From contig NZ_JBFNEO010000001.1 of NCBI RefSeq assembly GCF_040797585.1, positions 1-33,166 of the forward strand: a stretch of 33,166 nucleotides of DNA. The letters run 5' to 3'. This document shows, piece after piece, positions 1,928 to 29,507 of the stretch. The translations under genes were made by a program, and so were the position numbers. Within the stretch, counting starts at the first letter, position 1. Each line of letters starts with the position of its first letter. The notes below the pieces were generated by a model. That model saw only the letters and a program-made list of their open reading frames with translations, made no database searches and had not been told where the DNA came from. Source of the stretch: Clostridium sp. GTDB taxonomy: Bacteria > Bacillota > Clostridia > Clostridiales > Clostridiaceae.

Positions 1928-2806
1928 TTATTTAGCTACTTTTGCTTTATTACTATAAGATTTAAACATTGTTATAGATGTATATAGTATAACTATTACC
2001 ACAAGCCACTTTAATATTTCAAGTGGTAAACTCTTTACAAGATAAGCTGCTATAAATACACCTATAGATCCAAATATAGTTATTGCTATAGCTGCCTTCT
2101 TATCATAGGCTCCTTCTTTAACAAACTTTAATGAAGCTGATGGCATTAAAAATGCACAAGATCCCATCATTATTGGGAAGGCAACTGCTGGACTCATACC
2201 TAAAGCATAAACTAACGCCATACATGGCGCATATAATCCTATTCCAACAGTCATTAATGCTCCTAATATAAAGTTGGCTACTACTGCAAATATAAGCTTA
2301 CCTCCAGTTAATCCTATTGCCTCTCCACCTATTGGCATTAATCCTAACTGTGATGCTAACATAATTAATGAAACTGCTAGTAATGCTATTGCCATAAATA
2401 GTTGTATCTTCTTTTCATCAAGTTTAGAAACAAAGCCAGCTCCAACTACAGCTCCTATAGCAGCTGCTGCAAGCATACTTATAAGAGTTACAGGTTCAAC
2501 CTCTATACCATCTATAAATATAAAAGCTTCTAAAACAACTGGTATTGTACAAGACACATTTAATGTTCCAGGTATGTACTTATCTCTTGTTAGCTTAAAA
2601 CCCTTTAATAAAGCTGTTAATGGTGCAAAAGCTCCTATGCCTAAAGTATCAAAAAAGTTTACTACAAACCCTGATACTCCTGCTATTACAAAATTTCCTT
2701 CTCCAAGGCTCCCTTGCTTTTTTGCTGCTATAACATCTTTTATATAAAAAACTGCAAATATTAATGTAATAACTCCTAATGCTGCAAGGACTATATTGGT
2801 TAACAT
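1928..2806 (-). CDS. TauE/SafE (TSUP) family membrane transporter
   Basis: Very hydrophobic 292 aa protein with repeated FDTLGIG / LMTVGIG halves and a PGTLN motif. GGGGGA RBS. Confidence 0.8.
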   Translation of the reverse strand: MLTNIVLAALGVITLIFAVFYIKDVIAAKKQGSLGEGNFVIAGVSGFVVNFFDTLGIGAFAPLTALLKGFKLTRDKYIPGTLNVSCTIPVVLEAFIFIDGIEVEPVTLISMLAAAAIGAVVGAGFVSKLDEKKIQLFMAIALLAVSLIMLASQLGLMPIGGEAIGLTGGKLIFAVVANFILGALMTVGIGLYAPCMALVYALGMSPAVAFPIMMGSCAFLMPSASLKFVKEGAYDKKAAIAITIFGSIGVFIAAYLVKSLPLEILKWLVVIVILYTSITMFKSYSNKAKVAK

Positions 2807-3001: not shown

Positions 3002-4006
3002 TTAGCCTAAGCTAAATCCGTGCTTTACAGGATCATTTTCATCTATAACAAAATGATTAAATCCTGTTATATATGCACTTCCTGTTATCTCTGGAATTAC
3101 TGCAGTATATTCTCCTACCTTAGTAGTTCCTAAAATTTTCCCTCTAAACATTGTTCCAAGAATACTTTCATATATGAAGTCTTCTCCCTCTTTAAGTTCT
3201 CCTTTTGAGAATAATGTAGCCATTTTTGCACTTGTACCAGTTCCACATGGTGATCTATCAACTTGACCTTCTCCAAATATAACAACATTCTGATATGTCG
3301 CCTTTTCATTCTTCGGTGGTCCATATATTTCTACTAAATCTACAGTAGTTATATGAGATAAAGTTGGATGCTTTATTTCCACTGTAGAGTTTATTATGTC
3401 TCTTATATTTAGACCAACCTCTGTAAGTTTTGTAGAGTTCTTAGGGTCTATTTCTAAACCTAGTTCCTTAGAATTTACTATAGCAAAAAAGCTTCCTCCA
3501 AAAGATATATCCACATTAACCTTCCCTATTTCAGGAACTTCTATTTCTACACTTTTGTATAAAAATGATGGAACATTAACTATTGATGCTTCAATAGCTT
3601 TCCCATTCTCAACTTTAACCTTAGACTTAACAAGTCCAGCTGGTGCTTCTAAAACTATTTCAGTATATGGTTCCTTAACCTCTACCATTCCTGTTTCTAC
3701 TGCAACCGTAGCTGCTCCTATGGAACCATGTCCACACATATTTAGATATCCGCCACCATCCATGAAAATTATTCCAAGATCTGCTTCTTCATGAGTTGGA
3801 GCTGTTATTATAGATCCAAACATATCTTTATGTCCTCTTGGCTCATGCATTATAGCTGTTCTTACATAGTCTAGATTCTCTTCAAGATATGCCTTTTTTT
3901 CTGGCATTGTGTTTCCCTTTATAACAGGTATTCCACCTACTACTATTCTTGTAGGCTCTCCCATAGTATGAGAGTCAACTGCTTGAATTGATTTTGAAAA
4001 TTTCAT
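3002..4006 (-). CDS. prdF: Proline racemase
   Basis: DSHTMGEPTR, EPRGH, and both catalytic Cys motifs MCGH and DRSPCGTG. Lies in the prd operon. Confidence 0.96.
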   Translation of the reverse strand: MKFSKSIQAVDSHTMGEPTRIVVGGIPVIKGNTMPEKKAYLEENLDYVRTAIMHEPRGHKDMFGSIITAPTHEEADLGIIFMDGGGYLNMCGHGSIGAATVAVETGMVEVKEPYTEIVLEAPAGLVKSKVKVENGKAIEASIVNVPSFLYKSVEIEVPEIGKVNVDISFGGSFFAIVNSKELGLEIDPKNSTKLTEVGLNIRDIINSTVEIKHPTLSHITTVDLVEIYGPPKNEKATYQNVVIFGEGQVDRSPCGTGTSAKMATLFSKGELKEGEDFIYESILGTMFRGKILGTTKVGEYTAVIPEITGSAYITGFNHFVIDENDPVKHGFSLG

Positions 4007-4010
4007 TGTA

Positions 4011-4481
4011 CTATTCCCCCACTTTCTTCATTTTAAGTTTAAGAAAAGCTAAAGCCTTCCTTGCATCTTTTATACCAATAGTATTTTCTCCTACAACCTC
4101 TGTCTCTATTCCTTCTTTAGATTTATTAAAATCCACTATAGTATCCATATATTTATTTGTCACTACAAACTCTCCTTGAGTTCCTACAAAACTTAATCCT
4201 ACTACAGGAATATTTCTTTTACCTATCTCTTCAATAGTATTTGCAAAATCTACATGGCTATTTCCCCATCCATCTAAGGATACTATAGCTCCATCTGCTC
4301 TCATAGCTTCAACTAATGTGCCTACTCTTTTCCCTACAAAAAGTTTATCTTCATTAGCTTGTGGTGTTCCAACTATAATTACTCCAAGTAAATCTACATC
4401 ATCATCCTTATCTACTATATCAAGTAGAGGATCTCTAAAATGATGAAGGGTTGTTTCCTTTGTAGATGGTCCTATTCCCAT
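4011..4481 (-). CDS. prdE: Proline reductase cluster protein PrdE (homologous to the PrdA C-terminal part)
   Basis: MGIGPSTKETTLHHFRDPL parallels PrdA CIGPASKECSRHYWREPL; DGWGNSHVDFA parallels EGFGNNHIDFA. Confidence 0.88.
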   Translation of the reverse strand: MGIGPSTKETTLHHFRDPLLDIVDKDDDVDLLGVIIVGTPQANEDKLFVGKRVGTLVEAMRADGAIVSLDGWGNSHVDFANTIEEIGKRNIPVVGLSFVGTQGEFVVTNKYMDTIVDFNKSKEGIETEVVGENTIGIKDARKALAFLKLKMKKVGE

Positions 4482-4495
4482 AACTATCCTCCTAA

Positions 4496-5254
4496 TTAAT
4501 GCATTGCTCTTAATGCTCCATCTCTGTATTCATTAGGTGATACTATTATTGGGACATTTCCCATATCTATTATTGATCTACTCCCTAAGGCACCACCGGG
4601 CTCTTTTCCGAATAAAGCAGTATCATACATAGCTCCCTGACCTGCTACTTGCTTTACTATAACTACATTTTTTCTATGCTTTTTAATTTTGTCATAATAC
4701 TCATGTTTTTCATCACATAGTCTTCCGTTTATTGTTTTTAAATATTCTCTTATCTCTTGTATAATAGAATCTGAAGCTTTATGAACCTCTGTTATAGCCT
4801 CTCTTAAGCTTCCCATACCTTTATTTAATACAAAATCTAAATGAATAATTATATCTTCTTTTCTTGGTGTCCCTGCTCTATCAAATACAATTTGCTCCTC
4901 TAAAATTCCTTCAGATGAACCAAATTCTGCGACCTGAACACCCTCTTCGTCAACTCCTGTAAGCATAACATTAACTCCTGTAAGTACATGAGTTATTCCC
5001 TCCCCTATAGTACCTAAAACCTTAGTTGCAATAGGTGAAAAATCCATTATAGAGTTTATGAATATATTATGATTATTAGGTTGTATTAGGTTTATCTTTA
5101 AACCGTTTATGTGGTCTTTGTTAAATTCTAAATTATCTATTCCATGCCTCAAGTAAAGAGTTCTATTCTTTAAAAAAGTTTTATCTGAAAATTCAACCTT
5201 TTCAACGTGAAAAGTCTTTATTACAAGCTTTCTTAACTCTTTTATTTCTCTCAT
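4496..5254 (-). CDS. prdD: Proline reductase cluster protein PrdD
   Basis: QVAEFGSSEGILEE, GQGAMYD and DMGNVP parallel the central part of PrdA. Position after prdB. Confidence 0.88.
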   Translation of the reverse strand: MREIKELRKLVIKTFHVEKVEFSDKTFLKNRTLYLRHGIDNLEFNKDHINGLKINLIQPNNHNIFINSIMDFSPIATKVLGTIGEGITHVLTGVNVMLTGVDEEGVQVAEFGSSEGILEEQIVFDRAGTPRKEDIIIHLDFVLNKGMGSLREAITEVHKASDSIIQEIREYLKTINGRLCDEKHEYYDKIKKHRKNVVIVKQVAGQGAMYDTALFGKEPGGALGSRSIIDMGNVPIIVSPNEYRDGALRAMH

Positions 5255-5328: not shown

Positions 5329-6054
5329 TTAAACTTTAGCAACATACTCGTATGGAAGAGATACTATCTTTCCAGGTGTATCTATTGTAACTAAATAATT
5401 TAAACTGTCCTTTAATATTGCAGTTTGCATTTCTTTGTTATTAGGCTCTCCAGCATTAGCTCCCATTGGAACTAATGGAGCAACTGATCTTGGTGTACCA
5501 GTCTGTCTAACAACTGGTGGTAATGCCGCTATACATATTGTAGGAATCCCCGATTCCTCTATCGCTCTCTGTACTAAAACAGCAGAACGGTGGCAAGTTC
5601 CTCAGCCAGCGGTTAAAACTACAGCATCTACATTTTCTTCTTTTAAAATTTTAGCTATTTCTGGGCCAGTTTCATTAGCAAACTTTTCTTGGTTTCCACC
5701 ACCACCCATGAATCCTATATGAGTTTCAGCTACTTCTTTTATAAATCCTTCAGCTGCTAATTCTCTTAATCTATCTATAGGGAACATGCAGTTGATGTCC
5801 TTATTAACATCTGCATTATCATATCCTCCATGGGATACCATCATATCAGATACTGGTGCATCTCCTGGTATTCTTCTAAAAGTGAAATCTCCTGCTAAAT
5901 TAAATCTCTTATCAGATTTTAAGTGTACTCCAGCAGCTGTAGCAAAAGCTATTTTCATATCTTTTAATTCTTTTGTTACAGGTGTCCATACTGGAGGAGG
6001 AGTTATTGGTACAAATATCTCAGATTGTAAACCCTTAACTACAGTATAATCCAT
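5329..6054 (-). CDS. prdB: D-proline reductase selenoprotein subunit PrdB, 241 aa, Sec at codon 151 (UGA 5602-5604)
   Basis: The ORF track stops at TGA. Reading through gives VLTAG-U-GTCHRSAVLVQRAIEESGIPT...PYEYVAKV with TAA at 5329-5331. UxxC motif, SHGGYD and DINCMFP are typical of PrdB. Confidence 0.96.
5563..5589 (-). promoter_or_regulatory. SECIS-like hairpin of prdB
   Basis: Begins 12 nt after the UGA: CGTTCT-G-CTGT-TTTAGT-ACAG-AGAGCG (6 bp, bulged G, 4 bp, G-containing loop). Confidence 0.7.
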
Positions 6055-6329: not shown

Positions 6330-8459
6330 TTACTTTGTAGAATATTTCTCTAATCTTTTTTCACTCATTGGGATTGTAGTTTCATTTGGAACTCTATCAA
6401 TCTTACTTCCATAAGCTTTTTCTACTGCTTCTAAGTTATTTTCCTTAACATTTGGATTCCACTTTCTTTCAGCAGTCTTTACATCTTCACCAGCTATAGC
6501 AGATTTCACCATTGATAAAGCTCTTATAGCATCTTCTTTACATAGAGTGTTACAAGAAAGAACTTCATTCTCTATTCCACCCTCTGATTTATTATTATCA
6601 ACCATGTATTTCATGTGCTTGTTACCAACAACTAAAGCTCCTTGAACTGCACAGAATGACATTCCAACTGCTGGAACTCCTCTCATTCCTATTTGTTCTA
6701 TATGAGATGCAAAATCTATATGGTTATTTCCAAAACCTTCAGTTGTAACTATAGCACCATCAACATCCATGAACTCAATCATCATTCCTAATCTTTCAGA
6801 TACATAGAACTTTTCAGCATTTATTTGTGGAGATCCAACAAATATAACTCCTGCGAAGTCTATTTCCTCATCATGTAAAGCCTCTGCTACAAGTGGCTCT
6901 CTCCAGTAGTGTCTTGAACATTCCTTAGATGCTGGTCCTATACAAGTTAATGCGTGGATTCCTCCATCTAATACTTCAAGTGGAGATAACATTACAGGAA
7001 CATTACCAAGGTCAACGTTTGGTTTACCTCCAAGTACTCCAACTGGTTCAACAGGTAATATTAAGTTATCGTGCATTGCACCTTGACCCATTATTTCTTT
7101 AACTATAACTACTTTTTTCTTACCTGGTCTTCTGTACTCTACAAGTTCTTCAGTATCAACAACTAATGATTCATCAAGCTTCTTAAGAGCTTCTCTTATT
7201 TCTTGAGTTATAAAGTCAGTTGCTGCGTGAGCTGCTAGAGGACCTGGTCTTTCCATGTTCATTCCTCTTGCTATAACCACTTCTGTCTTTATAAATATTT
7301 CACCCTTATCAGGTGCTCCTGGTCTTCCCCACATAATGTTTTCTTCTAGTATTCCTTCAGAAGATCCAAATTCTCCGATTTGTACTCCATCAGCATCTGT
7401 ACCAGTTACCATTACGATAGCTCCATCTATAACTCTCGTAACTCCATTACCTATCTTAGCATCATCTTCTTTAGTAGCTATTGGTTGAACATCCATTATA
7501 GTTTCAGAATAAGTGTTATACTTATCTGGAGTTATTATGTCAAGTTTTATAGATTCAACTAAGTGGCTTTGCTTTACAGCGTCTTCACATACATTTTCTC
7601 TTATGTAAAGAGTTGTTCCTTCAATCTTAGTTTCATTTCCTTCAACCTTAACATTTTCTATTTTAAAATGTTTCTTTATTAAAGATCTTACTTTCTTTTC
7701 TGCTAAAGTTTTATTAGCTTCTACTTTTTCTTCACTCTTAACTTGCCCCTTAACTTCAGCAGCCTTAACTGCTACTGGTGTAGCTGGCTTTGCCATTGGT
7801 GGCACTGGAGCTGCTCCATTTAATGTTAATGGAACTTCAATGTCAATTCCCTTACCCTCTGCGATTTTTATCTTAAGAACTGAACCGCTTAGGCTTGTTA
7901 CAACGTTTTGTTGGTTCGGCATTATTTCTTCCTCCTCATATCCTTCTAGGATTGAACTTGTTATAGGAGTTAGAGCTGAAGCATCAACGCTTAATGTCTT
8001 TCCTACAGCCTCTTGTCTTGTTAAAACATCATCTCCTAAATTAACAAGTAAAGAATCCTCTAATTGCTCAAAATACATTGGGTTTTCTAAGTCTTCATTA
8101 GTAATTGTGTTTCCAGCCTTCTTATTAAACTTAAGAACAGCTTTTTCCTCCGGGCAGCAAAGTTCATTAGAAACTTCTTCTTTTTCTTCCTTTGCTCCAC
8201 TTAACTCTTTATATCCTTCAACTATATCGGAAGTTATTGGTGTCAAAGAATCTATTGTTTTTGTGAGCTTTGCTCCAATTATTTCCCCTATTTTAAGGCA
8301 ATTGTCAGGTATTGATAGTAATCCTGAGTCAACCATATCTGGGAATATATCAGGATCCTCTAAATTGTCTGCTGAAATTATAGTTCCAGCTTCTGTTCTA
8401 CAACAAACAACAGCATACTCATTCCTAAGAGCTTCTGCATGTTCAGCACTCATTGACAT
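6330..8459 (-). CDS. prdA: D-proline reductase proprotein PrdA (pyruvoyl-forming)
   Basis: AVVCCRTEAG N-terminus, GEFGSSEG, GQGAMHDN, self-cleavage site HALT/CIGPASKE (Cys506, 6942-6944). AAGGAGG RBS. Confidence 0.96.
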   Translation of the reverse strand: MSMSAEHAEALRNEYAVVCCRTEAGTIISADNLEDPDIFPDMVDSGLLSIPDNCLKIGEIIGAKLTKTIDSLTPITSDIVEGYKELSGAKEEKEEVSNELCCPEEKAVLKFNKKAGNTITNEDLENPMYFEQLEDSLLVNLGDDVLTRQEAVGKTLSVDASALTPITSSILEGYEEEEIMPNQQNVVTSLSGSVLKIKIAEGKGIDIEVPLTLNGAAPVPPMAKPATPVAVKAAEVKGQVKSEEKVEANKTLAEKKVRSLIKKHFKIENVKVEGNETKIEGTTLYIRENVCEDAVKQSHLVESIKLDIITPDKYNTYSETIMDVQPIATKEDDAKIGNGVTRVIDGAIVMVTGTDADGVQIGEFGSSEGILEENIMWGRPGAPDKGEIFIKTEVVIARGMNMERPGPLAAHAATDFITQEIREALKKLDESLVVDTEELVEYRRPGKKKVVIVKEIMGQGAMHDNLILPVEPVGVLGGKPNVDLGNVPVMLSPLEVLDGGIHALTCIGPASKECSRHYWREPLVAEALHDEEIDFAGVIFVGSPQINAEKFYVSERLGMMIEFMDVDGAIVTTEGFGNNHIDFASHIEQIGMRGVPAVGMSFCAVQGALVVGNKHMKYMVDNNKSEGGIENEVLSCNTLCKEDAIRALSMVKSAIAGEDVKTAERKWNPNVKENNLEAVEKAYGSKIDRVPNETTIPMSEKRLEKYSTK

Positions 8460-8483
8460 ATCTAAGTTCCTCCTTCTAAGTTG

Positions 8484-9785
8484 TTATTCAACCTCTAATC
8501 TTCTACTTAATTTATGATCTACTGTTCTGAAGATGTGATCTGTTGCATGGTATACACCTACGCCCATCTTTGGAGCACAATTCATAACAGTATTTGAACA
8601 ATCGCTACAGTTAGATATTAATATTCTTTCTGCACCCATTTTCTTTAGCTGCAAAACTACAGCTGTTTGACCTGGTCAGTCACCTGGTGTCTTACATTTT
8701 AAAGCTGTTTTTATGTGTTCTACATTTTTACATTCCACAGCTCCAACTACTTCTGAATTCATTTTTCCAGCAATTTCTCTTAATCTATCTTCATTTGCAC
8801 CACAAGCACAAACTAATAATCCAAGCTTTCCTTTAAATTCTGGAAGTTCTATAGTTGGTATTGCTCCTCCTGAAGTTTTAGTGACATGGGCATCTTTAAG
8901 GTTGTCTGATTTACCAGTATATGGTCCACCTATAACAAGCTCTCCATATGCACCGTCAATTCCTCCAGCTCTTTCTATAAGCTCTTCTACCTTACTTCCT
9001 ACTGGAACATCGAAGAAAACAACTGTTTCTTTTCCACTCTTAAGCTTTCCAGCTACTGAGAAGTCTTTGTCTATAACTGGTTTCCTATCTTCAACTGCTC
9101 TCTTTATATTTGCAAGAGTTTCAGTATTTAAAACTACACATTTAGCTTCTAATGGAAGTTGGTCTGGTCTTAACCACTGTCCAAATATTCCATTTATAAG
9201 AGCTCTCTCTTCTCCCATTGGATATAAATCTTGAAGCTCTTTAACTTCTATATCATTTATTCCATTTAATGCTTTATTTAAAGATTCTATTGCTTTTTTA
9301 TTTTTTATCTTTATTCCTATGTATGCCTTTGGAGCTTTTGTAGCTTCCATTGCATATCTTATACCCTTTATAACTATCTCTGGATTCTCTTCTAAAAGTC
9401 TTACATTGTGCTTTAATAATGGTTCGCACTCAACACAGTTTGCTATTATATAACCATCTGGAATCTCAGCTTTAAGTTTTACATGGGCTGGAAAGCCTGC
9501 TCCACCTGCTCCTACTATTCCTGCTTCGAATACATAGTCTATAACTGAATTGCATTCCTTTATCTTTACATAATCCTTGCTTTGATTATCATCAGCCAAA
9601 ATTATTATTTCACTTTCATTAACCTTTGATACCACTCCAGTAACACTTGTATGTATCTTAGCCCCTAAACCTTTAGTTGGCTCTGCTATACATTCCCCTC
9701 TTTGAACCTTAGTACCTTCCTTCACAATTGGTTCACACGGTGCACCTACGTGCATCTTTAGAGGAAACTTGAACATCTTGTCCAT
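8484..9785 (-). CDS. prdC: Proline reductase-associated electron transfer protein PrdC (RnfC-like), 433 aa with probable Sec at codon 370 (UGA 8676-8678)
   Basis: RnfC motifs HVGAP, AGIVGAGGAGFP, CVECEP and YPMGEE. The frame stays open past the TGA: KCKTPGD-U-PGQTAVVLQLKKMGAERILISNCSDCSNTVMNCAPKMGVGVYHATDHIFRTVDHKLSRRLEVE to TAA at 8484-8486, just before the prdA RBS. Confidence 0.9.
8647..8664 (-). promoter_or_regulatory. SECIS-like hairpin of prdC
   Basis: Begins exactly 11 nt after the UGA: AGCTGTA-GTTT-TGCAGCT (7-bp stem, loop starting GU). Confidence 0.72.
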
Positions 9786-9820: not shown

Positions 9821-9837
9821 AGCAACTATCGTGCCAA
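9821..9837 (-). promoter_or_regulatory. Sigma-54 (SigL) -24/-12 promoter of the prd operon
   Basis: TTGGCACGATAGTTGCT matches TGGCAC-N5-TTGC. It lies about 35 nt upstream of the prdC ATG, next to a sigma-54 activator gene. Confidence 0.93.
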
Positions 9838-9925: not shown

Positions 9926-10072
9926 AATATAAAATTCAACAAAAGCGTTGAATTTTAGACACTTTTTTTCGCCATGTTTTGTTAAGAATATGTCAATCCA
10001 TTGCGAATTATCGCCTAACCATATTTTTCTATGGATTGTCAAAAAACAAACACACCTGTCAAATTATTGACA
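9926..10072. promoter_or_regulatory. Candidate PrdR upstream activator sequences
   Basis: 16-bp TGT-N10-ACA-like sites at 9946-9961, 10037-10052 and 10057-10072, plus an 11-bp inverted repeat at 9930-9957. Confidence 0.5.
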
Positions 10073-10077
10073 GGTGT
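10041..10077 (-). terminator. Terminator overlapping the prdR stop codon
   Basis: Minus strand ACACCTGTCAA-TAAT-TTGACAGGTGT followed by GTTTGTTTTTT. The TAA stop is in the loop. Confidence 0.65.
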
Positions 10078-11836
10078 CTATAAGTCCATATTGTTTTAAT
10101 TTATAATATAATGTAGTTCTTTTAATTTTTAATATCTCAGCAGCCTTTGCTTTATTCCCCTTAGTTATTTCCATAACCTCTTTAATTATATTATATTCAA
10201 GGGTTTTAACCCTTTCTTCTATATTGTATTTATCATCTTTATCTATCTCTATTTTTTCTTTAACCTTAGAGTTATTAAGGATATATTCAGGTATACTATT
10301 TATAGATATATGCCCCTTATTAGAGAGTACTACCATTCTTTGAATTACATTTTTTAACTCTCTTATATTTCCTTCCCATGTATAGTTTAAAAGGATTTCA
10401 TATATTTCATCATCTATATCATTAATTAAAATACCTTCATATTTTGATATGTTATTAACAAAATAATTGATTAATTCCTTAATATCTTCTTTTCTTTCTC
10501 TAAGGGACGGAAGTTCTAACTGAACAACTGCTAATCTATAAAATAGATCATCTCTAAAAGTCTTATCCTTTATAGCTTCTCTTAAATTCTTATTTGTAGC
10601 TGCAATTATTCTAGTATTAGTATGAATAGCTTTTTCACTACCTAATCTATATACAATACCATCTTGAAGAACTCTTAAGAGCTTACTTTGCATACCAATT
10701 GGCATATCTCCTATCTCATCTAAAAATAAAGTTCCATTATTAGCAAATTCAAACATACCAATTTTACCTTTTTTCACTGCTCCAGTAAATGCACCTTCCA
10801 CATATCCAAAAAGCTCACTTTCAAGAAGATGCTCTGGTATAGCACTACAGTTAACTGCTACAAACTGTCCTTGTCTTCCACTAGCTTCATGAATTGCCTT
10901 TGCAAAAACCTCTTTTCCAGTTCCACTCTCTCCTGTTATAAGAACTGATGCAGTTGTTGATGCCACCTTTTGACAAAGGGCTATAGCATCTATCATTTTT
11001 TTACTTTTCCCTATTATATGAGAAAACTTATAGTTATTGGCAATCTCTCTATTATACGCATTGCTTAAAAGTTCCACTTTCTCATTTGCACTCTCTAGTT
11101 CCTTAGATAATGCAACTACCTCAGTTATATCTCTATCTGTAGATACAACTGCAATAATTTGCTGTTTAGAATTATATATAGGAACTGCGCTTAATATAAC
11201 TGACTTTCCCTTTATAGGTTCATGTCTTATATTTTCTATAATTTCTCCATCTTTTAAGGCTTTTAAAATTATTGCATTAGTAAAATGATTTTCTATAGGT
11301 CTTCCAATAACATCTTTTGCTTTTAGTTTGTAAAGCTTTTCTGCACTCTTGTTCCAATAGCTTACTACACCTTTTTCATCACATATGCATACTGCCTCAT
11401 GGATATTATCTAAAATATTATTTTGTAGATCAAACATCTCATCTATTTTTAAATAAAAAGTATCTCTAAGATTATTAGAAGTTATAACTCCTATAACCTT
11501 ATCATCTTTTACTACTGGTATTCTTCCAATACCCTTATCAACCATAATATCTCTAGCTACTCTTGCAGATTCATCCGGTCCTATGGTTATTAGACTCTCT
11601 ATCATGTGATCCTTCATAGAATCTTTCATAGAATCATTTTTTCTTGATACTCTAGCTAAATCTTTTCTTGTAAACATTCCACGTAGTTTATCATATTTAT
11701 CTACAACAATAACTTCATCTAGATTATTATTTATAATAAGATCTGCTATATCACTTAAATTACTCTTTTCTTCTACTTTTACAAAATTTACATTCATTAT
11801 ATCCTTTACTCTATAAAGTAACTCAGATAAATTCAT
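10064..11836 (-). CDS. prdR: Sigma-54-dependent activator PrdR (CBS pair-PAS-AAA+-Fis HTH)
   Basis: Walker [29 protein letters not shown]-terminal [21 protein letters not shown]-terminal CBS and PAS domains. Upstream of prdC. Confidence 0.93.
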
Positions 11837-17673: not shown

Positions 17674-18462
17674 TTATGCTTTAAACTTATGCTTTCTTAT
17701 AATTTCTTTTCCTTTTTCACTTTCAATGAATTTCATGAATTCATCTCCTAGATCTTTCTCTTTAGAGTTTGTAGCCATCCAATACTCTGCTTTTTCATTT
17801 AACTCTTCTTTAATCTGGATTTGCTTTATGCTATCCTTAACATCATCTGTTACATCTGTTACATATACAAAGGTAGCGTCTCCCTCTTTTATCTTAACTT
17901 TGTTCAATGCCATTTTAACGTTAGCTTCATTAGAAACTACCTTAGACATTACCTTGTCTTTATATCCCTTATTTATATTATCTACCTTGTCTATAATCTT
18001 TCTTGAATACTTTCCTATCGGTACTTCCTCTGCACACATTACAAGTTTTTCTACAGATGTTAAATCTTCTAAGGATTTTATGGTTTCATTATCCTTATTA
18101 ACAACCAAAACCACTTCATTAAATGCCATTACTTTTCCTTCATTTACTAAAGATTTCTCCTTAAGTTTTGAATAATGACCATTGTCTGCAGATACGAATA
18201 AATCAAAATCAGCACCACTTTCTATTTGTGTTCTTAAGGTACTAGATCCTCCAAAATTTAAAACTATTTCTCTATTCTTGTTTTCCTTTTCAAATTCTGT
18301 CTTTAACTCTTCCATAACCTCTGTTAAAGAGGAAGCTGCAAATACTGTAATCTTCTCTTTTTTACCCTCTGTCTTTGATTCCTCTTTTTTACTTCCACTT
18401 CCACAAGCCACTAGTGACAACATTAAAACTACTGAAATAATAACTGATAAAAATCTTTTCAT
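17674..18462 (-). CDS. modA: Molybdate ABC transporter substrate-binding lipoprotein
   Basis: Lipobox LVAC, VFAASSL, NFGGSSTLRTQIESGA, VPIGKY, VYVTD. Confidence 0.92.
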   Translation of the reverse strand: MKRFLSVIISVVLMLSLVACGSGSKKEESKTEGKKEKITVFAASSLTEVMEELKTEFEKENKNREIVLNFGGSSTLRTQIESGADFDLFVSADNGHYSKLKEKSLVNEGKVMAFNEVVLVVNKDNETIKSLEDLTSVEKLVMCAEEVPIGKYSRKIIDKVDNINKGYKDKVMSKVVSNEANVKMALNKVKIKEGDATFVYVTDVTDDVKDSIKQIQIKEELNEKAEYWMATNSKEKDLGDEFMKFIESEKGKEIIRKHKFKA

Positions 18463-18465
18463 TTT

Positions 18466-18897
18466 TTACTTTACCTCCTGAATTTCATCTCCAACTTTTA
18501 CTTTTCCACCTTTTAATACCTTTGCAAATATACCATTAGTTGGCATTATACAGCTTCCTACAGTATAGAAAATATTACAAGGTTTATGACATTGTTTACC
18601 TATTTGGGTAACCTCAAGTAGAGTCTCCCCAATTGAAAGCTTAGTTCCTATTGGAAGATTAACTAAATCTACGCCTTCTGTAACTAAGTTTTCACCAAAA
18701 TCCCCTAGTTCTACCTTCCCTCCTTTTTCTCTAAATTCTGTAATCCTCTCCATTGCAAGAAGGCTTACTTGTCTATGCCAATCACCTGCGTGAGCATCAC
18801 CTTTAAGACCATGATTTTCGACAAATACACATTCCTTAACATCTGTTTTTCCAATTCCCTTTTTATCACTTGTACACACTGCTAAAACTTTACCCAT
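18466..18897 (-). CDS. MOSC domain-containing protein
   Basis: GLKGDAHAG..HRQVSLL, FGENL, LEVTQIGKQCHKPC, CIMP..GIFAKVLKGG. Confidence 0.88.
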   Translation of the reverse strand: MGKVLAVCTSDKKGIGKTDVKECVFVENHGLKGDAHAGDWHRQVSLLAMERITEFREKGGKVELGDFGENLVTEGVDLVNLPIGTKLSIGETLLEVTQIGKQCHKPCNIFYTVGSCIMPTNGIFAKVLKGGKVKVGDEIQEVK

Positions 18898-18903
18898 AAA
18901 CTT

Positions 18904-19890
18904 TTATCCTCCTATTTGAGACATAAATCTAATGTCTGCGTTATCCTTTTTTTCTCCAAAATTATGATTAGTTGGTTTATTGTATATTGTATCTTTTATG
19001 ATTTCCTTAACTTCTTCATAGGTTTTACCGTCTCTAAGTATAGGTCTTAAATTAGTACCACTATTCCAATGAAGGCACTGCTTTAAGAACCCATCGCAGG
19101 TAAGCCTTATCCTATTACAATCACTACAAAAGCAACTGCTCATAGGACTTATGAACCCTATGGTAGAAGTCTTACCATTACTTTCGTTATAAAAGCTTTT
19201 GTATAACGCTGGTCCTCTTAGGCCATTTTTTTCTGTTTCTTTCTCTATGTAAGTCCTTTCTTTTTTTATGACCTCTTCTATTTCCCCTGAAGTCATTCCT
19301 ATGAAATCTTTACCTTTTCCTATTGGCATAATCTCAATAAACCTAACTTTAATACCTTTTTCCTCTGAAAATCTTATAAAGTCCATTATCTCATCTTGAT
19401 TTTTTCCTTTAACTATTACTACATTAAGGCTAACTTCAATTTTATGCTCTATTGCCATATCTATAGCCTTAAGAACTTTTTTAAGATCTCCATTATTAGT
19501 TATACTTTTAAATCTATCTTCTTTAAAAGAGTCTAGACTTATATTTACCCTGTCTAATCCACTTTCTTTTAACTTCTTAATTTTTTCTGGTAACAATATT
19601 CCATTAGTGGTTATTGCAATCTCATTAACTCCAGGTAACTTCTTTACCTTTTTTATTAGATTTTCTATACCTTCTCTTACTAAAGGTTCTCCTCCAGTAA
19701 ATCTAAATTTACTTATTCCAAGTTCTGATCCTATCTGAGCCACAGTATATATCTCATCAAGAGATAACATATCTTCTTCCTTAAAGAAATTATCGTATCC
19801 TGGAGGCATACAATAATTGCACCTTAAGTTACACCTATCTGTTAAAGATATTCTCATATAATTTATTTCTCTTCCTAAGTTATCTTTCAT
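18904..19890 (-). CDS. moaA: GTP 3',8-cyclase MoaA
   Basis: RISLTDRCNLRCNYCMP, TGGEPL, FCSDCNRIRLT..G.LKQCL, C-terminal IGG. Confidence 0.96.
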   Translation of the reverse strand: MKDNLGREINYMRISLTDRCNLRCNYCMPPGYDNFFKEEDMLSLDEIYTVAQIGSELGISKFRFTGGEPLVREGIENLIKKVKKLPGVNEIAITTNGILLPEKIKKLKESGLDRVNISLDSFKEDRFKSITNNGDLKKVLKAIDMAIEHKIEVSLNVVIVKGKNQDEIMDFIRFSEEKGIKVRFIEIMPIGKGKDFIGMTSGEIEEVIKKERTYIEKETEKNGLRGPALYKSFYNESNGKTSTIGFISPMSSCFCSDCNRIRLTCDGFLKQCLHWNSGTNLRPILRDGKTYEEVKEIIKDTIYNKPTNHNFGEKKDNADIRFMSQIGG

Positions 19891-19906
19891 ACAATCCCCT
19901 CTTTAA

Positions 19907-20674
19907 TTAATACATTTCATATTTTTTTACTCCAAGGATTACAGCTAAAGATATTATAACAAGTACCATAGAAATAGAAACTGACAAATTCAAATCTTTC
20001 TCTAGTGCCATATAAATAGCCAGTGGCAATGTTTGAGTTTTACCAGTTAGGTTACCTGCAAATATTATGGTAGCCCCAAATTCTGATAAGGCTCTTGCCC
20101 AACAAAGTATACTTTGAGTAACTATTGGCTTTTTGCACATAGGTAATGTTAATTTATAAAAGACTTGATAAGGCTTAAGTCCTAAATCCATTGCTGCATC
20201 TTCTAAAGTTTTATCTACCCCTTTAAAAATATGAGTAGTTGCTGTAATAAACTGAGGAAGGATTATAAAGGTTTGAGCCATTACTACTGCTATAAAAGAA
20301 AAAGATATATTTATTCCATAAAGATCTAAATACTTCCCTATAAAACCTGCTCTTCCAAAGCATAAAAGTAATAATACTCCTGCCACAGAAGGTGGTAATA
20401 CAGTTGGAAGTCTAAATACTATATGAAGAATTCCCTTTCCCTTAAAGCTATATCTTGCCATAAGCCATGATATTGGTATCCCTAGAATTAATGTTGCTGC
20501 AAGGGATATAAGTGTACTTTCAAGACTTATAACTATTGCCTTTAAAACATAATCACTTAGCATTGTTTCTATAGAAAATGTTGAATAAAGTAATATGGAT
20601 AACATAGGCAAAAATAAAAATCCTGCCCCTAAAATTGTTATAATCACTATTATTATTAAAGGCTTATTTTTCAT
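19907..20674 (-). CDS. modB: Molybdate ABC transporter permease
   Basis: [14 protein letters not shown]-like [29 protein letters not shown]. Start placed at ATG 20674, overlapping the moaC end. Confidence 0.9.
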
Positions 20675-21137
20675 AAATGTAGTGACCACTCTTTCCTCCA
20701 ATCTTCTCTCTTAAATGTATCCCCTCTATAACCATTGCCTTATCTACTGCCTTACACATATCATATATTGTAAGTGCTGCAATAGATACCGCTGTTAATG
20801 CCTCCATCTCCACTCCAGTCTTACCTGTAGTCTTAACTTTGGATCTTATTATAACTGAATTGTTTTCATCATCTATTTCAAAATCTACCTCACATCCATT
20901 TATCATAATCGGATGACAAAGTGGTATTAAATCAGATGTTCTCTTGCTCCCCATTATGGCAGCTACCCTTGATATTCCAAGAACATCTCCCTTTTTCATA
21001 TTTCCTTCTTTTATAAGGTTTAATGTTTCTTTCTTCATGGTTATTTTGCCTTCTGCAAAAGCTATTCTCTCAGTTTCATTTTTATTTCCTACATCCACCA
21101 TTATAGCTTTTCCATCTCTATCAAAATGAGTAAGCAT
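20664..21137 (-). CDS. moaC: Cyclic pyranopterin monophosphate synthase MoaC
   Basis: MLTHFD...[32 protein letters not shown]. Start at ATG 21137. Confidence 0.96.
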
Positions 21138-21138
21138 A

Positions 21139-22161
21139 TTAAACACCCTTTCCAAAATTACAATGTGGAAAACTACAAATCTCACAGTCTAGACATAATC
21201 CTCCATGACCATAAGCTGCTATATCTTCCATAGTTAGTTTCTCCTCTATTAAAACTCTTGGAAGAACTAAATCAAAAGCTGTTCTTTTCGAATACATAAC
21301 ACATCCTGGAAGTCCAAGTATAGGGATATCCCCCTTATAAGCAACTAATAACATAGCTCCTGGAAGTATTGGTGCTCCGTATGTACAAAGTTCTGCCCCT
21401 GTACTCTTTATAGCTGTAGGAGTTAAGTCATCTGGATCTACTGACATTCCACCTGTACATATAACTATATCTGCTCCCTTTACAATCCACTGCTCTATAG
21501 CTTCTTTTATTCTATTTTCATTGTCATCAACTATAACCTGTCCTAAAACCTCACAGTCGTATTCCTCTACCTTTTTTCTTATAACAGGACCAAAAGCATC
21601 TTTTATTCTTCCATGGTATACTTCATTTCCAGTGGTTACTATTCCAATCTTCTTTGATTTAAAAGGTATAACTTCTACTATACTTTGTCCACTTGCTATT
21701 TCCTCAGCCTTCTTTAACTTTTCATCTTCTATAACTAGAGGAATTATTCTAGTTCCTGCAACCTTCTCTCCTTTTTTCACCGGGGTATTATTATGAACTG
21801 TTGCCATCATAATTTCACCTAATGCATTTACTTTAAATAGAAGGCCTTTATTTATCTTCAGAAGTCCATCATATTCAGCATAAAAGTCTATCTTACCTTC
21901 CTTTGTCTCCCCAAAGGTAAGCCCTGACCCTGCACTTAAATTTCTTAATCTTTCTGCTGCATCATTTTCATGAACTATACCTTCTGTTTGCTCCCAAACA
22001 TATATATTATCCTTACCACAAGATAATAATCTCTGAATATCCTCTTCTTTTATTATATGTCCCTTTTTAAATGCTCTTCCCTTAAACTCTCCCGGAATAA
22101 TTTGAGTTATATCATGACATAACACACATCCTACTGCATCTACTGTTCTTATCTTTTTCAT
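21139..22161 (-). CDS. MoeA-like molybdopterin-binding protein with C-terminal 4-Cys motif
   Basis: [33 protein letters not shown], ending [20 protein letters not shown]. Start at ATG 22161 after a GGGGAAG RBS. Confidence 0.82.
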
Positions 22162-22177
22162 ATATCTTCCCCCTAGA

Positions 22178-22669
22178 TTATTTCCTTGCACACTCTGTAG
22201 CATTAGCTTTTAATATGTCAATACCATGTTTAATACTTGGCATAATATAATCTATAACTTCTTTAACTGCCTTTGGGCTACCTGGCATGTTTATAATAAG
22301 AGTTTCTCCTCTTATCCCACTAGCTGCTCTTGAGAGCATAGCTCTTTCAGTTATCTTTAAGCTATACATAGTTATAGCTGTACTTATACCTTGTGCTTCC
22401 TTCTCTATAACCTTTTTTGTAGCCTCTGGGGTTACATCCCTTTTACTAAATCCAGTTCCTCCTGTTGTTAGGATAAGTTCTACTTTAAGATCATCACACA
22501 TATATTTCATTTCTTGTATAAGATCCTTCTCCTCATCAGGTACTATTACATATCTCTCTACCTTGTACCCAAGCTTTTCTACTTCTTCTACTATCACTTT
22601 TCCACTTATATCTTCACGTTCTCCCCTTGATCCCTTGTCACTTGCTGTAATTACTCCAACCTTATACAC
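22178..22669 (-). CDS. mogA: MogA/MoaB-family molybdopterin adenylyltransferase
   Basis: ITASD...DISG, VPDE, TTGGTGFSKRDVTPEAT, AMLSR, NMPGSPKA. GTG start with GGAGGG RBS. Confidence 0.88.
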   Translation of the reverse strand: MYKVGVITASDKGSRGEREDISGKVIVEEVEKLGYKVERYVIVPDEEKDLIQEMKYMCDDLKVELILTTGGTGFSKRDVTPEATKKVIEKEAQGISTAITMYSLKITERAMLSRAASGIRGETLIINMPGSPKAVKEVIDYIMPSIKHGIDILKANATECARK

Positions 22670-22955
22670 AATATCTCCCTCCCCTTATATCTTTTATGTG
22701 TTCTAAAGTTCTCTTATTTTCCATAAGTAATACTTATACTGAAATCTATTAGAAACCTTTACATAAAGTTTTATAGATAAGACCTTATGTAAACTTTTAG
22801 AACCTATCTTTATTTAAAACTATTTCCTAGAATTTATAATTACTACATTAAACCCTATTATATTTATTATATTATAAAAAGAAAAATCATCATAGATACA
22901 CTTTTTAATTATTGAAACATTATATGTATTTTTTAAGTATGGCTTATTCTATAAA

Positions 22956-23759
22956 TTAAAAACGTTCTTTTTCCAATATAAGTACAGCTTCTAAAACACT
23001 TCCAGCTATGCATCTAGCTTTATCAGAAATTGTAAAACAGTTTTTAAATTCTGAATCTCTAGGGTCTATATCAGCTACTTTAAATTTCTCTGTAACCAAA
23101 TATCCATCTCTTATAATTCCTCTAAGAATACCATCTATAGAAGCTAGGATTTTATGTTCTCCTATGGTTGCTATAACCTGTCCTTTTTCTACCTTATCTC
23201 CAATTTTACCTATGGTTTTTATAATACCATCCTTACCACTATAGATAACTCTTTCTTTAGTACAACCTCTAATATCTCCTGGCACTCCTGTGTTTTCTAA
23301 AGGTTTGCCTTTTAAAATTATACGTCCAAGGTCATGTCCTCTCATGGTCTCTATTACTACATCTACATCTACCCCGGCTTCAAATCCTGGTCCAAGTCCT
23401 ATAGTTATTGGCGCCATATTTTTGTTAGTTCCTAAGTTTTTCTTAGCTAATATAGCATCTACCAATACCTTTGGCTTTAATTCTTCTATAAGATCTCCAT
23501 TTTCATCTACAGCTATAGGAATGAATCCATTCTGCCAAGCTTCTTTAATCTCCTTAAAATCTTTAACCCTTACTGCTTTTAAATTTTCTACTACAGCCTC
23601 TCCATCATAAATAGCCTCACTAAATGCAACACTACGTCTTATTGCTGATGGTTTTTCTATGTCAAGAACAACTACTTTAAACCCACTTCTGTAAAGTTTA
23701 TGAATAGTTCCAGAAGCTATATCTCCGCCACCTCTTACTACTATTATATCTCTATACAT
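22956..23759 (-). CDS. yqeB: Selenium-dependent molybdenum hydroxylase system protein YqeB (EF2563 family)
   Basis: VRGGGDIASG, AIRRSVAF, DAILAKKN, GLGPGF, ETMRGHDLG, DIDPR, ISDKARCIAG. Confidence 0.92.
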   Translation of the reverse strand: MYRDIIVVRGGGDIASGTIHKLYRSGFKVVVLDIEKPSAIRRSVAFSEAIYDGEAVVENLKAVRVKDFKEIKEAWQNGFIPIAVDENGDLIEELKPKVLVDAILAKKNLGTNKNMAPITIGLGPGFEAGVDVDVVIETMRGHDLGRIILKGKPLENTGVPGDIRGCTKERVIYSGKDGIIKTIGKIGDKVEKGQVIATIGEHKILASIDGILRGIIRDGYLVTEKFKVADIDPRDSEFKNCFTISDKARCIAGSVLEAVLILEKERF

Positions 23760-24336
23760 TTTTAAATACCCCTTTTATAAGATTTAAGTACTCCTCATTA
23801 GTGTCAATATCAATGAAAGGAAGCCCATCTTTCATGTCTACCTCTTTAACCCTATGAGGATATTTTTTTATGACAGCCCGTCCACCAGTATCCCCTTCTA
23901 TAGATAATAAATCCTCTCTGTATAACCTGGGAAATATGGTTGGGTGTGCTCTATGCCCTTGTACTCTAGGAATTATTATATAATCTTTATGTCTTTTACC
24001 CTCATTAATAAGAGTCTCAATAACTTCCTTATTTAATAGAGGCTGATCTCCAGTAAAGAACATATAATCTCCTTCCTTTAAATACTCTACCCCAAGTTTA
24101 AGACTTTCACTTTGTCCAAGATAAGGTTTCTTATTTTCTATGACTATGATACCTTTTTCTTTTCCTATACTTAAAACCCTTTCATCTTTAGCTACAAGAA
24201 CTATGTTACTAAAATTTAAAGAGATTAATGTATTTATAAGGTGCTCTATAAAGGTCTTCTCCTTATAGTTTAGTAATAATTTATTCTGCCCCATTCTCTT
24301 TGAATAACCAGAAGCCATTATTACAGCATTAATCAT
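23752..24336 (-). CDS. mocA: Molybdenum cofactor cytidylyltransferase (MocA/YgfJ family)
   Basis: IMASGYSKRMGQNKLLL, GQSESL, GDQP, GDTGGR, DIDT. Located between yqeC and yqeB. Confidence 0.88.
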   Translation of the reverse strand: MINAVIMASGYSKRMGQNKLLLNYKEKTFIEHLINTLISLNFSNIVLVAKDERVLSIGKEKGIIVIENKKPYLGQSESLKLGVEYLKEGDYMFFTGDQPLLNKEVIETLINEGKRHKDYIIIPRVQGHRAHPTIFPRLYREDLLSIEGDTGGRAVIKKYPHRVKEVDMKDGLPFIDIDTNEEYLNLIKGVFKNV

Positions 24337-25051
24337 ATATTACCGTCCCCTTCTTTAGACTTACTCCAACTACTTTATCTATGTAATTTTTATTTCTTTT
24401 TTCTACTAATTCTTTAAGTTTATAATACTTATGTTTATCCTCCTCATTATCGACAGCGTTTATAACAAGGATTCTTTCTCCCCTACTATTTTTAAATAGC
24501 CCATCTTCATTAAAAATCATATTAACTAAATGGTTATAATTTACCTTTTCAGACTCTATACCTTTAGAGATTTGTAAAAACTTATCTAATCTATGTACGT
24601 TTTCATAATCAATAAACACATCTAAAGCCTTAAGAGAAATAACCCCTAAAGTCTTTGTAGTTATATTAGGTACTAAAGGTTCATCTTCTCTCCATCCCTT
24701 TAAAATCTTCCTTTTTGACCCATCCCCCTCTATAAAAATATAGTTAAAACTTTCAGCTAAATAACCTAATTCTCTATCATTTATGCCAAAAATCTTATTT
24801 TCTTTATTTACTTCGACACCAATTACCCATATACCTTTTTTATTGTAATTAAATTCTTGTATATTTTCTGTTATATGTAAATAATCATAATCTTTAGACT
24901 CTGGTATGAATATCTTAGTTGTAGTAGTTACTAAAGTTTTTTCATCTCTAAACTCTTTAGAAAGAGCCATCATAAGGGATGTTTTTCCCCCTGCCCCTAT
25001 AATAGTTACAATATCCTTCCTTCTAATATGGAATAAATCCTTTAAGTTCAT
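24329..25051 (-). CDS. yqeC: Selenium cofactor biosynthesis / hydroxylase accessory protein YqeC
   Basis: IIGAGGKTS, VTTTTKI, IEGDGSKR..LKGWREDEP, VHR. Start moved to ATG 25051 because AGGAGG abuts the 25057 ATG. Confidence 0.9.
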   Translation of the reverse strand: MNLKDLFHIRRKDIVTIIGAGGKTSLMMALSKEFRDEKTLVTTTTKIFIPESKDYDYLHITENIQEFNYNKKGIWVIGVEVNKENKIFGINDRELGYLAESFNYIFIEGDGSKRKILKGWREDEPLVPNITTKTLGVISLKALDVFIDYENVHRLDKFLQISKGIESEKVNYNHLVNMIFNEDGLFKNSRGERILVINAVDNEEDKHKYYKLKELVEKRNKNYIDKVVGVSLKKGTVIYD

Positions 25052-25107
25052 GTTCATCCTCCTTTTAAATATGAAGAACTTATATTTCCTCAGTTCTTAA
25101 ATTAAAT

Positions 25108-25280
25108 TTTATTTGATGGCTAGGATATGTAACACCCCCATCCTCTTAAAAGGTAGGGGACAACACCTTCTACAAGTTGGATATAAAAGACGTTACACCC
25201 CTAAATAAGTTCTTCTAAGTTCCAGTGGGAATATGGTATTCCCTTAGTCAAACTCCCACTGAAGCTAAGAATCATTTCAT
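25108..25280 (+). repeat. Dispersed structured intergenic repeat, copy 3
   Basis: TTTATTTGATGGCTAGGATATGTAACACCCCCATCCTCTTAAAAGGTAGGGGACAACA aligns with 14637-14693. Second hairpin CAGTGGGA/TCCCACTG, tail AAGAATCATTTCAT. Confidence 0.72.
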
Positions 25281-25281
25281 A

Positions 25282-27564
25282 TTACTTATTTACATTCATT
25301 GCATTAAAGACCTTTTCCGGGAACATTGGAAGATCTCTAAGGTTTACTCCTACAGCATTATATATAGCATTCGCTATGGCCGGAGCTGGAGTATTTATAA
25401 CAATTTCTCCAATGGATTTGGCTCCAAAAGGCCCTGTCGACTCATAGCTTGGTATAAATTCTACTTTTATATTTCCTATCTCTTTTCTGCATGGAATCTT
25501 ATATTGCATAAAAGTATTAGTCTGAAGTTTTCCTTTTTCATCGTATCTTACATCTTCATATAAAGCTACTCCTATACCTTGTACAATCCCTCCCTCTACT
25601 TGAACCTTTGCAAGTTTTGGGTTTATAAGTGTACCACAGTCAACTACTGCTACATAATTAATTATATCAGATTTTCCTGTTTCTTTATCAACTTCTATCT
25701 CTGCAAATCCTACCATATATGGAGATGGAGATGTATCACTACCAAAAGTTCCATGACCTTGAAGCTGTTTTCCTTCTGACCCTAATACACTATTAACTGC
25801 TATATCCTTAAGGGTTATCTCTTTCCCAGTAGTACTCTTTAATATTTTCCCATCAAACTCCAAATCTATCTTATCTACCTCTAAATATCTAGCCCCTGCT
25901 TCATGGATTTTCTCTATAATTTCATCACAGGCCTTTATTACTGCCATTCCTGTTACATAAGTGGTAGAAGAAGCATAAGAGCCTCCATCATAAGGAACAG
26001 TATCTGTATCTGCCACATTTAAAACTATATTTTCAAATTCTGTCATTAACTTATCTGCTGCTATTTGAGTAAGGATTGTATCACATCCTTGTCCCATATC
26101 AGTTCCAGCTAAGTATAAAGTGTAAAAACCATCATCTCCAAGCCTTACCGCAGCAGATGCACAATCAACATTTGCTATACCTGATCCTTGCATTCCAAGG
26201 GCCATTCCTACACCCCTTACCTTTGTATCAGATGTATGAACCCTTGGATATTTATCCTTCCATCCTATAAGTTCCTTTCCTTTTTCTATACACTTATCAA
26301 GAGTAGAGCTTGTTAATGGTGTTTCAAGAAGATGCATTTTTTCTCCTACTTTACATAAGTTCTTTAACCTAAGCTCTATTGGATCCATATTAAGCTTTGT
26401 TGCCATTTCATTCATAGCTGATTCTAATGCATAATCTCCCTGAGTAGCTCCATATCCTCTAAGAGCTCCCGCTGGCACTTTATTGGTATATACAACATTC
26501 CCTTGAAATCTTGCTGCATTTGATTTATACATTGGAATACTCTTCTTACCAGCTGCTCCAAGGACTGTAAACCCATGATCTCCAAAAGCCCCTGTATCAG
26601 ATAACCCCTCCATATCTATAGCTTTTATATTTCCTTTATTGTCAGCACCAATTCTCACTCTTATTTTCATAGCGTGTCTTGTACTAGTACATCCAAAGGT
26701 TTCTTTTCTATCATATATTATTTTTGATGGTTTTCCAGTTCTCCAGGTAACTAAGGCGGTAAATAATTCAACTGCCACTGTTTGTTTTCCTCCAAAACCA
26801 CCACCTATTCTTGGCTTTATGACCCTTACCTTAGTTGAAGGTATTTCTAAGGCTCTAGATACATGTCTTCTAACATGAAAAGGGATTTGAGTTGAACTTA
26901 CAATTACTAGTCTTCCAATATAATCAACATAGGAAAAAGCTCTATAAGTCTCCATCATTCCATGGGCCTGTGCCTGCATTGAGTAAGTTTCATCTACAAC
27001 TACTTCTGAATTCTTTAATTCTTCCTCAACATCTCCCCCTGTAGCCATATAAACACTACCTACTATATTTCTCTTAGGATTAAATCCACATATTTTTTCA
27101 AGTCTTTCTTCGTTTTCTATATCATCCTCATCATGTATAACTGATGGATTATCTATTGCCTTTTCTGGATCAAGTACTGGCTCATAAACTTCATACTTAA
27201 CCTTTATAAGATTCACAGCTTTTATTGCAGTTTTTTCGTCCTTTGCTGCAACTATAGCTACCTCATCTCCTACATATCTAACTATAGGATCTAGTATCAA
27301 TCTATCATAGGGAGATAATTCTGGATAAGATTGTCCTGCTAAAGCAAAACGAGTTTTAGGTACATCTTTATAAGTTAATATACATTCTACCCCTTCAACT
27401 CTCTCAGCTATAGACGTGTTTATATCTAGTATTTTTGCAAAAGCATGGGGACTTCTAAGTATCTTTACAACTAATGCATCTTTCATTACTAAATCATCTG
27501 TATATGCTGGTTTTCCAGTAGTTATTCCAATAGAATCAACCTTATCAATACTCTTTCCTATCAT
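25282..27564 (-). CDS. Xanthine dehydrogenase-family molybdopterin-binding subunit (paralog 1)
   Basis: LRSPHAFA, SSTQIPF, PRIGGGFGGKQ, ALRGYG, DMGQG, SYASSTT, QVEGG..QG, GPFGAKSIGE. Confidence 0.93.
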   Translation of the reverse strand: MIGKSIDKVDSIGITTGKPAYTDDLVMKDALVVKILRSPHAFAKILDINTSIAERVEGVECILTYKDVPKTRFALAGQSYPELSPYDRLILDPIVRYVGDEVAIVAAKDEKTAIKAVNLIKVKYEVYEPVLDPEKAIDNPSVIHDEDDIENEERLEKICGFNPKRNIVGSVYMATGGDVEEELKNSEVVVDETYSMQAQAHGMMETYRAFSYVDYIGRLVIVSSTQIPFHVRRHVSRALEIPSTKVRVIKPRIGGGFGGKQTVAVELFTALVTWRTGKPSKIIYDRKETFGCTSTRHAMKIRVRIGADNKGNIKAIDMEGLSDTGAFGDHGFTVLGAAGKKSIPMYKSNAARFQGNVVYTNKVPAGALRGYGATQGDYALESAMNEMATKLNMDPIELRLKNLCKVGEKMHLLETPLTSSTLDKCIEKGKELIGWKDKYPRVHTSDTKVRGVGMALGMQGSGIANVDCASAAVRLGDDGFYTLYLAGTDMGQGCDTILTQIAADKLMTEFENIVLNVADTDTVPYDGGSYASSTTYVTGMAVIKACDEIIEKIHEAGARYLEVDKIDLEFDGKILKSTTGKEITLKDIAVNSVLGSEGKQLQGHGTFGSDTSPSPYMVGFAEIEVDKETGKSDIINYVAVVDCGTLINPKLAKVQVEGGIVQGIGVALYEDVRYDEKGKLQTNTFMQYKIPCRKEIGNIKVEFIPSYESTGPFGAKSIGEIVINTPAPAIANAIYNAVGVNLRDLPMFPEKVFNAMNVNK

Positions 27565-27566
27565 GT

Positions 27567-28819: not shown

Positions 28820-28928
28820 GTCTATTCCCCCTAATTAATATATTTGTTTTATTTGAAATTCAACTTTCGTCTTTTATGTTTATTTATTGAAAAATACTTA
28901 ATAATTTGGAAACTTTTTTTAATTTTAG

Positions 28929-28956
28929 ATTATATCACTTTACTTTCTTATTACAA
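28929..28956 (-). promoter_or_regulatory. SigA-type promoter for triad 1 / yqe operon
   Basis: TTGTAA-16 nt-TATAAT with an extended -10 (TGA-TATAAT). Confidence 0.55.
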
Positions 28957-29451: not shown

Positions 29452-29474
29452 CAACATATTAAATTATATATTTG

Positions 29475-29507
29475 AATAAAAAATGCTGACTTAAGTCAGC
29501 ATTTTTT
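29475..29507 (-). terminator. Terminator after triad 2
   Basis: Perfect palindrome AAAAAATGCTGACTTAAGTCAGCATTTTTT directly after the stop codon. Confidence 0.85.

Follow-up and report, generated by a model that had tools for sequence, protein, structure and literature searches.

The proline reductase operon of this Clostridium sp. raises the question of whether the TGA that interrupts prdC ends the protein or is read as selenocysteine. The window, i.e., the whole stretch of 33,166 nt that was analysed, carries the gene order prdR-prdC-prdA-CBO2463 family gene-prdB-prdD-prdE-like-prdF (Table 1), where the prdE-like gene (4011-4481) resembles PrdA in its C-terminal part. As predicted from sequence comparison, the TGA at 8676-8678 very likely encodes selenocysteine 370 in a complete PrdC of 433 aa, the already catalogued form 2.

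Table 1. Features of the prd locus, in window coordinates.
Feature	Coordinates	Strand	Remarks
prdC, 433 aa, predicted Sec at residue 370 (PrdC form 2, UPGQ)	8484..9785	-	TIGR04481, 636 bits
In-frame TGA, predicted Sec370	8676..8678	-	Column is C or TGA in 115/115 distinct genes
RnfC-like N-terminal part of PrdC: RnfC_N barrel, FMN/NADH-binding Complex1_51K, SLBB	8832..9785	-	
PrdC C-terminal alpha/beta domain, about aa 319-433	8487..8831	-	Takes the place of the RnfC C-terminal part
SECIS-like hairpin, 7-pair stem, GUUU loop	8647..8664	-	Stem from 11 nt, loop 18 nt after UGA
prdA proprotein, 709 aa	6330..8459	-	Own RBS 8468-8475
prdB, 241 aa, Sec at TGA 5602-5604 (TAG-U-GTC), own downstream hairpin	5329..6054	-	
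prdR, sigma-54 activator	10064..11836	-	NF041552, 831 bits, over cut-off
prdD, prdE-like gene, proline racemase prdF	3002..5254	-	PrdD and proline racemase over cut-off
Sigma-54 -24/-12 promoter-like site upstream of prdC	9821..9837	-	Exact match

Reading the minus strand from the ATG at 9785, codon 370 is TGA (8678-8676) in the context KCKTPGD-U-PGQ, followed by 63 sense codons (8675-8487) and a TAA at 8486-8484, just before the RBS of prdA, as the original prediction had described. Residues 369-373, D-U-P-G-Q, correspond to the UPGQ motif of selenoprotein form 2, and the read-through product reaches 636.4 bits against TIGR04481 (cut-off 490), with an alignment from profile position 1 to 424 (of 425). 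A genuine stop codon, or a read error leaving prdC truncated or a pseudogene, could appeal to the 369-aa product, which by itself scores 518 bits, above the same cut-off, with the alignment ending at profile position 362, and to the chance background: of the 145 long TGA-ended frames examined in the genome, 13 run on past the TGA for 63 codons or more. Against it, the 63 residues after the TGA retain the invariant residues of the family, the same TGA occurs in 28 other distinct prdC genes from several parts of the tree, and the genome (96% complete) yielded this one PrdC match and no other. Besides, a second contig of 151 nt, from another study, covers the TGA with only two differences, both elsewhere (8562 and 8670). 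In a third contig, which differs at 43 positions, none of the differences listed falls on this codon. Since the 151-nt contig and the 28 other genes carry the TGA, it is not an assembly error, nor is it private to this assembly.

Regarding the relatives, one of the searches behind the homologue sample retained the 80 best out of 125 confirmed stretches, so that the sample leans to close relatives; the nearest named one among those 80 is Clostridium hydrogeniformans DSM 21757 (94% identical). The 110 C-terminal matches of the sample correspond to 99 distinct DNAs, window included, in which the codon at column 370 is TGA in 29, TGT in 55 and TGC in 15. Adding a class-wide search, where 18 of 400 genomes matched, brought the set to 115 distinct genes, with 86 Cys, 29 TGA and no other residue at this column; the U column is shared with C. 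sporogenes and C. botulinum loci, which carry U at the window's position. Counting both selenocysteine sites of the family, 29 genes have U370, seven have U396 and 79 have Cys at both, and the combination of U370 and U396 was found in none of the 115. Because relatives in this sample have Cys at both sites, Sec370 or Sec396 but never both, selenium in PrdC is an optional upgrade at one sulfur position and not a switch.

The hairpin downstream of the UGA, AGCUGUA-GUUU-UGCAGCU (8664-8647), has the seven pairs, the loop and the 11-nt distance that had been predicted, one of the pairs being a U.G wobble. The original prediction gives the minimal SECIS of E. coli fdhF the same 11-nt spacing, for which literature searches found no statement. 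With a stem of 7, a loop of 4 (GUUU) that lies 18 nt after the UGA and -8.4 kcal/mol as local MFE, the hairpin of prdC agrees with all constraints of the bSECIS model, which asks for a loop of 3-9 nt, a stem of 4-16 bp, a G within the first two loop positions, a UGA-to-loop distance of 16-37 nt and an MFE of -7.5 or lower (PMC13188914). Compared with dinucleotide shuffles, the z-scores are just -1.1 to -2.2, weak taken singly, and this modest signal is what a plain stop codon could still draw on. The hairpin is unusual against two other nulls: among synonymous recodings of the same peptide (n = 5000), 0.42% fold as well, 1.9% reach 7/7 pairs and 14.5% at least six, and an equally good fold is seen at only 36 of 5130 coding positions.

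More telling against a plain stop, the hairpin tracks the TGA. In the register of the window, at least six of the seven stem pairs form in 29/29 TGA genes and in 2/70 Cys genes among the 99 distinct genes, a contrast whose independence is overstated by the kinship among prdC genes; in the larger set of 115, the same is seen in 4/86 genes lacking U370. The mean local MFE is -9.3 kcal/mol in the TGA genes vs -1.6 in the Cys genes, and the loop begins with G in all 29 of the former. When 24 of these 29 were aligned, 97.4% of the cells were paired, with two-sided changes in two of the pairs (G-C to A-U, and C-G to U-A via U-G); three measures of covariation were better than shuffles (reached by 2/500), and two that count pairs or pair types were no better (249/500). 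Together with the codon being present in the independent contig, these results make a truncated or dead prdC very improbable.

As for the history of the codon, a quick-method tree of 106 proteins out of the 115, built after masking the codons of Sec and SECIS, needs four changes of the U370 label and gives no direction for them; the nine proteins left out had no usable start (three U370, one U396 and five Cys). The hairpin follows the U370 codon in 4/4 independent pairs, only four pairs, corresponding to p = 0.125. Its sequence is near-identical across U370 genes and partial stems are kept in Cys sister clades (L046-L048, L108-L109), from which we infer a probable single origin of U370 and its hairpin, followed by repeated loss or exchange, instead of separate inventions.

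Concerning the selenocysteine machinery, whose possible absence had been raised as an objection, selA, selB and selD are located on contig C43 and tRNA-Sec(UCA) (selC) on C109, all over cut-off. SelB with Sec-tRNA would bind the GUUU hairpin and insert selenocysteine at the UGA of prdC. With only Cys or Sec at the column in 115/115 genes, a hairpin that accompanies the TGA and this machinery at hand, the original idea of a predicted Sec in the place of a Cys is well supported. Other likely selenoproteins of the genome are selD, with an in-frame TGA (G000 C43 near 14043), and two GrdB-like frames with TST-U-GTC (C187 near 3370 and C55 near 11759). In addition, genes for the molybdenum cofactor and for molybdenum transport lie on the minus strand of the window at 17674-33013, along with yqeB, mocA, yqeC and, in tandem, two xanthine-dehydrogenase-like sets of three genes, so that the selenium-cofactor molybdenum hydroxylase trait shares the contig with the prd operon. 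At the other extreme, two loci (L117, L118) have Cys in both PrdC and PrdB, with TGC at the Sec position of PrdB, being selenium-free proline reductase operons.

The UPGQ form of PrdC is already described in print, so the novelty that the original prediction left uncertain is none. As described by Fonknechten et al. in 2010 (PMC3091704), PrdC of Clostridium sticklandii is a selenoprotein with a C-terminal CxxU, the Sec position deviates in C. botulinum PrdC, and C. difficile has Cys; Poehlein (2015) noted that C. sporogenes has PrdC copies with Sec as well as with Cys (PMC4517662). The reviews of 2022 (PMC9312934) and 2026 (PMC13188914) separate 'PrdC form 1' (CxxU) from 'form 2', the latter exemplified in the tables of both by WP_245122565.1; the 2026 review gives UPGQ as the motif of form 2 and lists both forms as 'predicted with high confidence', not verified. 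PMC4118067, PMC11229817 and PMC5029168 add little to this.

The window's protein shows no difference of substance from form 2, as the family (TIGR04481), the U-P-G-Q motif and the operon are all alike, and a C. sporogenes copy is 66% identical to it. C. sporogenes-like genomes carry Sec and Cys prdC paralogues side by side, whereas this genome has one prdC, and their PrdC has a 4-residue insertion before KCKTPG that is absent here. Form 1, as in C. sticklandii, is the same protein with the same C-terminal domain, one Sec and the same proposed role, but its Sec is at the position matching 396 and not 370, and its conserved hairpin in seven genes lies about 20 nt after the UGA, compared to 11 in form 2; the C-terminal CxxU of form 1 is not found in the window's PrdC, which reads C393-S-D-C396. 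The form 1 genes (L133-L137, L139, L140; U396) share this distinct hairpin, of the type CUCCUA-GGU-UAGGAG, with -7.5 kcal/mol or lower in 7/7 of them vs 9/108 Cys genes.

Regarding expression, the sigma-54 site at 9821-9837 is the sole exact match in the window, where 0.56 would be expected allowing one mismatch, and since it lies upstream of prdC, this is likely the first gene of the operon, as had been proposed; the site agrees with the PrdR regulon of PMC6615313, which also gives the sigma-54 consensus. The original prediction added that UGA read-through could make the downstream genes sensitive to selenium through polarity. In such a reading, a failed insertion at a genuine Sec370 would cause an early stop, and Rho, or lost coupling, would cut prdAB expression. 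A likely first position of prdC, prdA lying within 400 nt after prdC in 29/29 U370 loci and a rho gene in the genome are in line with that proposal, but prdA has its own strong RBS (AAGGAGGA at 8475-8468), 8 nt after the prdC stop, with its ATG at 8459, and the genes do not overlap. Moreover, no terminator-like site was found within 8484-8678, and C is scarce (30, against 49 G) in the 219 nt between the UGA and the start of prdA, unlike in Rho loading sites; polarity is also probably weak in Firmicutes, to judge from B. subtilis. The same gene order occurs in 74/79 Cys/Cys loci and a TGA in prdB in 40/42 of those with readable prdB, so most such operons carry no selenium sensor in prdC. A sensing role by polarity is accordingly unsupported and quite unlikely.

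Other features surround the operon. The gene after prdF (1928-2806, minus strand) encodes a TauE/SafE-family membrane protein, which may be the PrdG exporter of PMC3091704. The end of prdR holds an inverted repeat of 11 perfect pairs (10052-10077, minus strand), which is scored as a terminator and contains TGT-N10-ACA, the pattern of the PrdR activator site (PMC6615313); it could be both. PrdA has its N-terminal domain of about 72 aa twice (7905-8459, minus strand), 40% identical and with VVCCR in the first copy, while several relatives have a stand-alone ORF of this domain, of 137-145 or 212-220 aa, next after prdC, and one public protein call (P0018) fuses PrdC to it; this domain may be a docking or redox partner of PrdC. 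Plasmids also carry PrdC homologues, with 48-53% identity, namely those of 21 kb in Terrisporobacter and one of 146 kb in Paraclostridium (hits H1-H8).

The relationship to RnfC that had been recognized holds for the N-terminal part of PrdC. Its first 320 aa or so share the barrel, the FMN/NADH domain and SLBB with RnfC (7zc6_C, 9eri_C, 8ahx_C), with a Foldseek E-value of 4e-29 to 9eri_C, but these matches end at about aa 305-321 with none beyond, and the RnfC profile TIGR01945 covers residues 3-308 only, with 205 bits, below its cut-off of 246. While RnfC has a ferredoxin-type C-terminal domain, PrdC has instead a different, Cys-rich alpha/beta domain with seven invariant Cys/Sec (326, 328, 352, 364, 370, 393 and 396) in the pattern CxC-x23-C-x11-C-x5-U-x22-CxxC, besides H413 and D416. 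The seven thiol positions are invariant in 65/65 aligned domains. Foldseek gave no match to this domain at E 0.001 or better, the VIA list is headed by generic alpha/beta folds, and the profile search found no Fe-S family over cut-off.

Two families were compared with this domain. The CGGC domain (PF08821) is the most frequent weak Pfam match, in 12/65 members (best E 0.028), and hhalign gives 37% (E 3.5e-4, 28 columns), placing Cys/Sec370 of CPG on the second Cys of CGGC-PG. The signals are weak, as the window's own domain has no match even at E 10 and the global alignment is not significant, and the CGGC motif is absent from PrdC, which has PGD-U-PG instead; a remote relationship is possible. 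A tested function of the CGGC family was not found in the literature search. The CCG domain (PF02754) of HdrB/EtfD, which binds noncubane [4Fe-4S] clusters, has an hhalign probability of 4.6%, with unrelated alpha/beta folds scoring equal or higher; this is a resemblance only. PrdC also lacks the adjacent CC pair of the EtfD cluster D2 ligand pattern, C-x(34)-CC-x(35)-CxxC, and the CCG motif. The CCG/HdrB-like reading seems about as well supported as the CGGC-like one of the original prediction.

PrdC is proposed to be the electron-transfer protein that re-reduces D-proline reductase. NADH would reduce the FMN in its RnfC-like part, from where electrons would travel to the Cys/Sec centre of the C-terminal domain, which would in turn reduce the PrdB selenide-sulfide; this final step follows the published proposal that PrdC uses NADH to reduce its own sulphide-selenide and then that of PrdB (PMC3091704). 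Considering the seven conserved thiols, we lean slightly towards Sec370 as a metal/Fe-S ligand, or an active-site selenol beside a cluster, over half of a CxxU-type pair. A domain without cluster, where Sec370 would form a selenide-sulfide with a nearby Cys and be reduced directly by the flavin, has a substantial chance, short of even: it agrees with the thiol/selenol exchange model published for the CxxU form (PMC3091704), with the lack of any Fe-S family over cut-off and with no fold match standing out, but seven invariant positions (65/65) are more than one redox pair needs, Sec370 lies outside a CxxC/CxxU motif and selenium is found at either of two positions in the thiol set. In addition, PMC3091704 cites older work that reported an iron-sulfur cluster for PrdC, yet the RnfC match ends at about residue 320. 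Within the preferred cluster-side reading of Sec370, the domain might be a diverged CCG/HdrB-type module with an unusual Fe-S cluster and selenium on the alternative ligands 370 or 396, which is rather doubtful. If true, PrdC would be a one-chain NADH:selenosulfide reductase, with an RnfC flavin head and an Hdr-like catalytic cluster, cleaving the Se-S bond of PrdB as HdrB does the heterodisulfide, and selenium would sit on two different cluster ligands (never both in the sample), each with its own SECIS spacing.

This finding adds one genome to a catalogued selenoprotein form, and its practical point is annotation. The table-11 ORF of prdC has 369 aa and would be named PrdC without a flag; it looks complete because it passes the family cut-off, but of the seven conserved thiols it lacks those at 370, 393 and 396. 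The expectation that gene callers truncate prdC is borne out in part: besides this ORF, profile position 77 is where eight predicted proteins in public data stop, the two inspected doing so just before the form 1 Sec, and the reviews give a WP_ accession for form 2. The remaining interest in PrdC is biochemical, since its Sec is still listed only among predictions and the C-terminal domain has no Foldseek match among solved structures. The natural Cys/Cys, Sec370 and Sec396 variants of PrdC are a ready series on the electron route to proline reductase.
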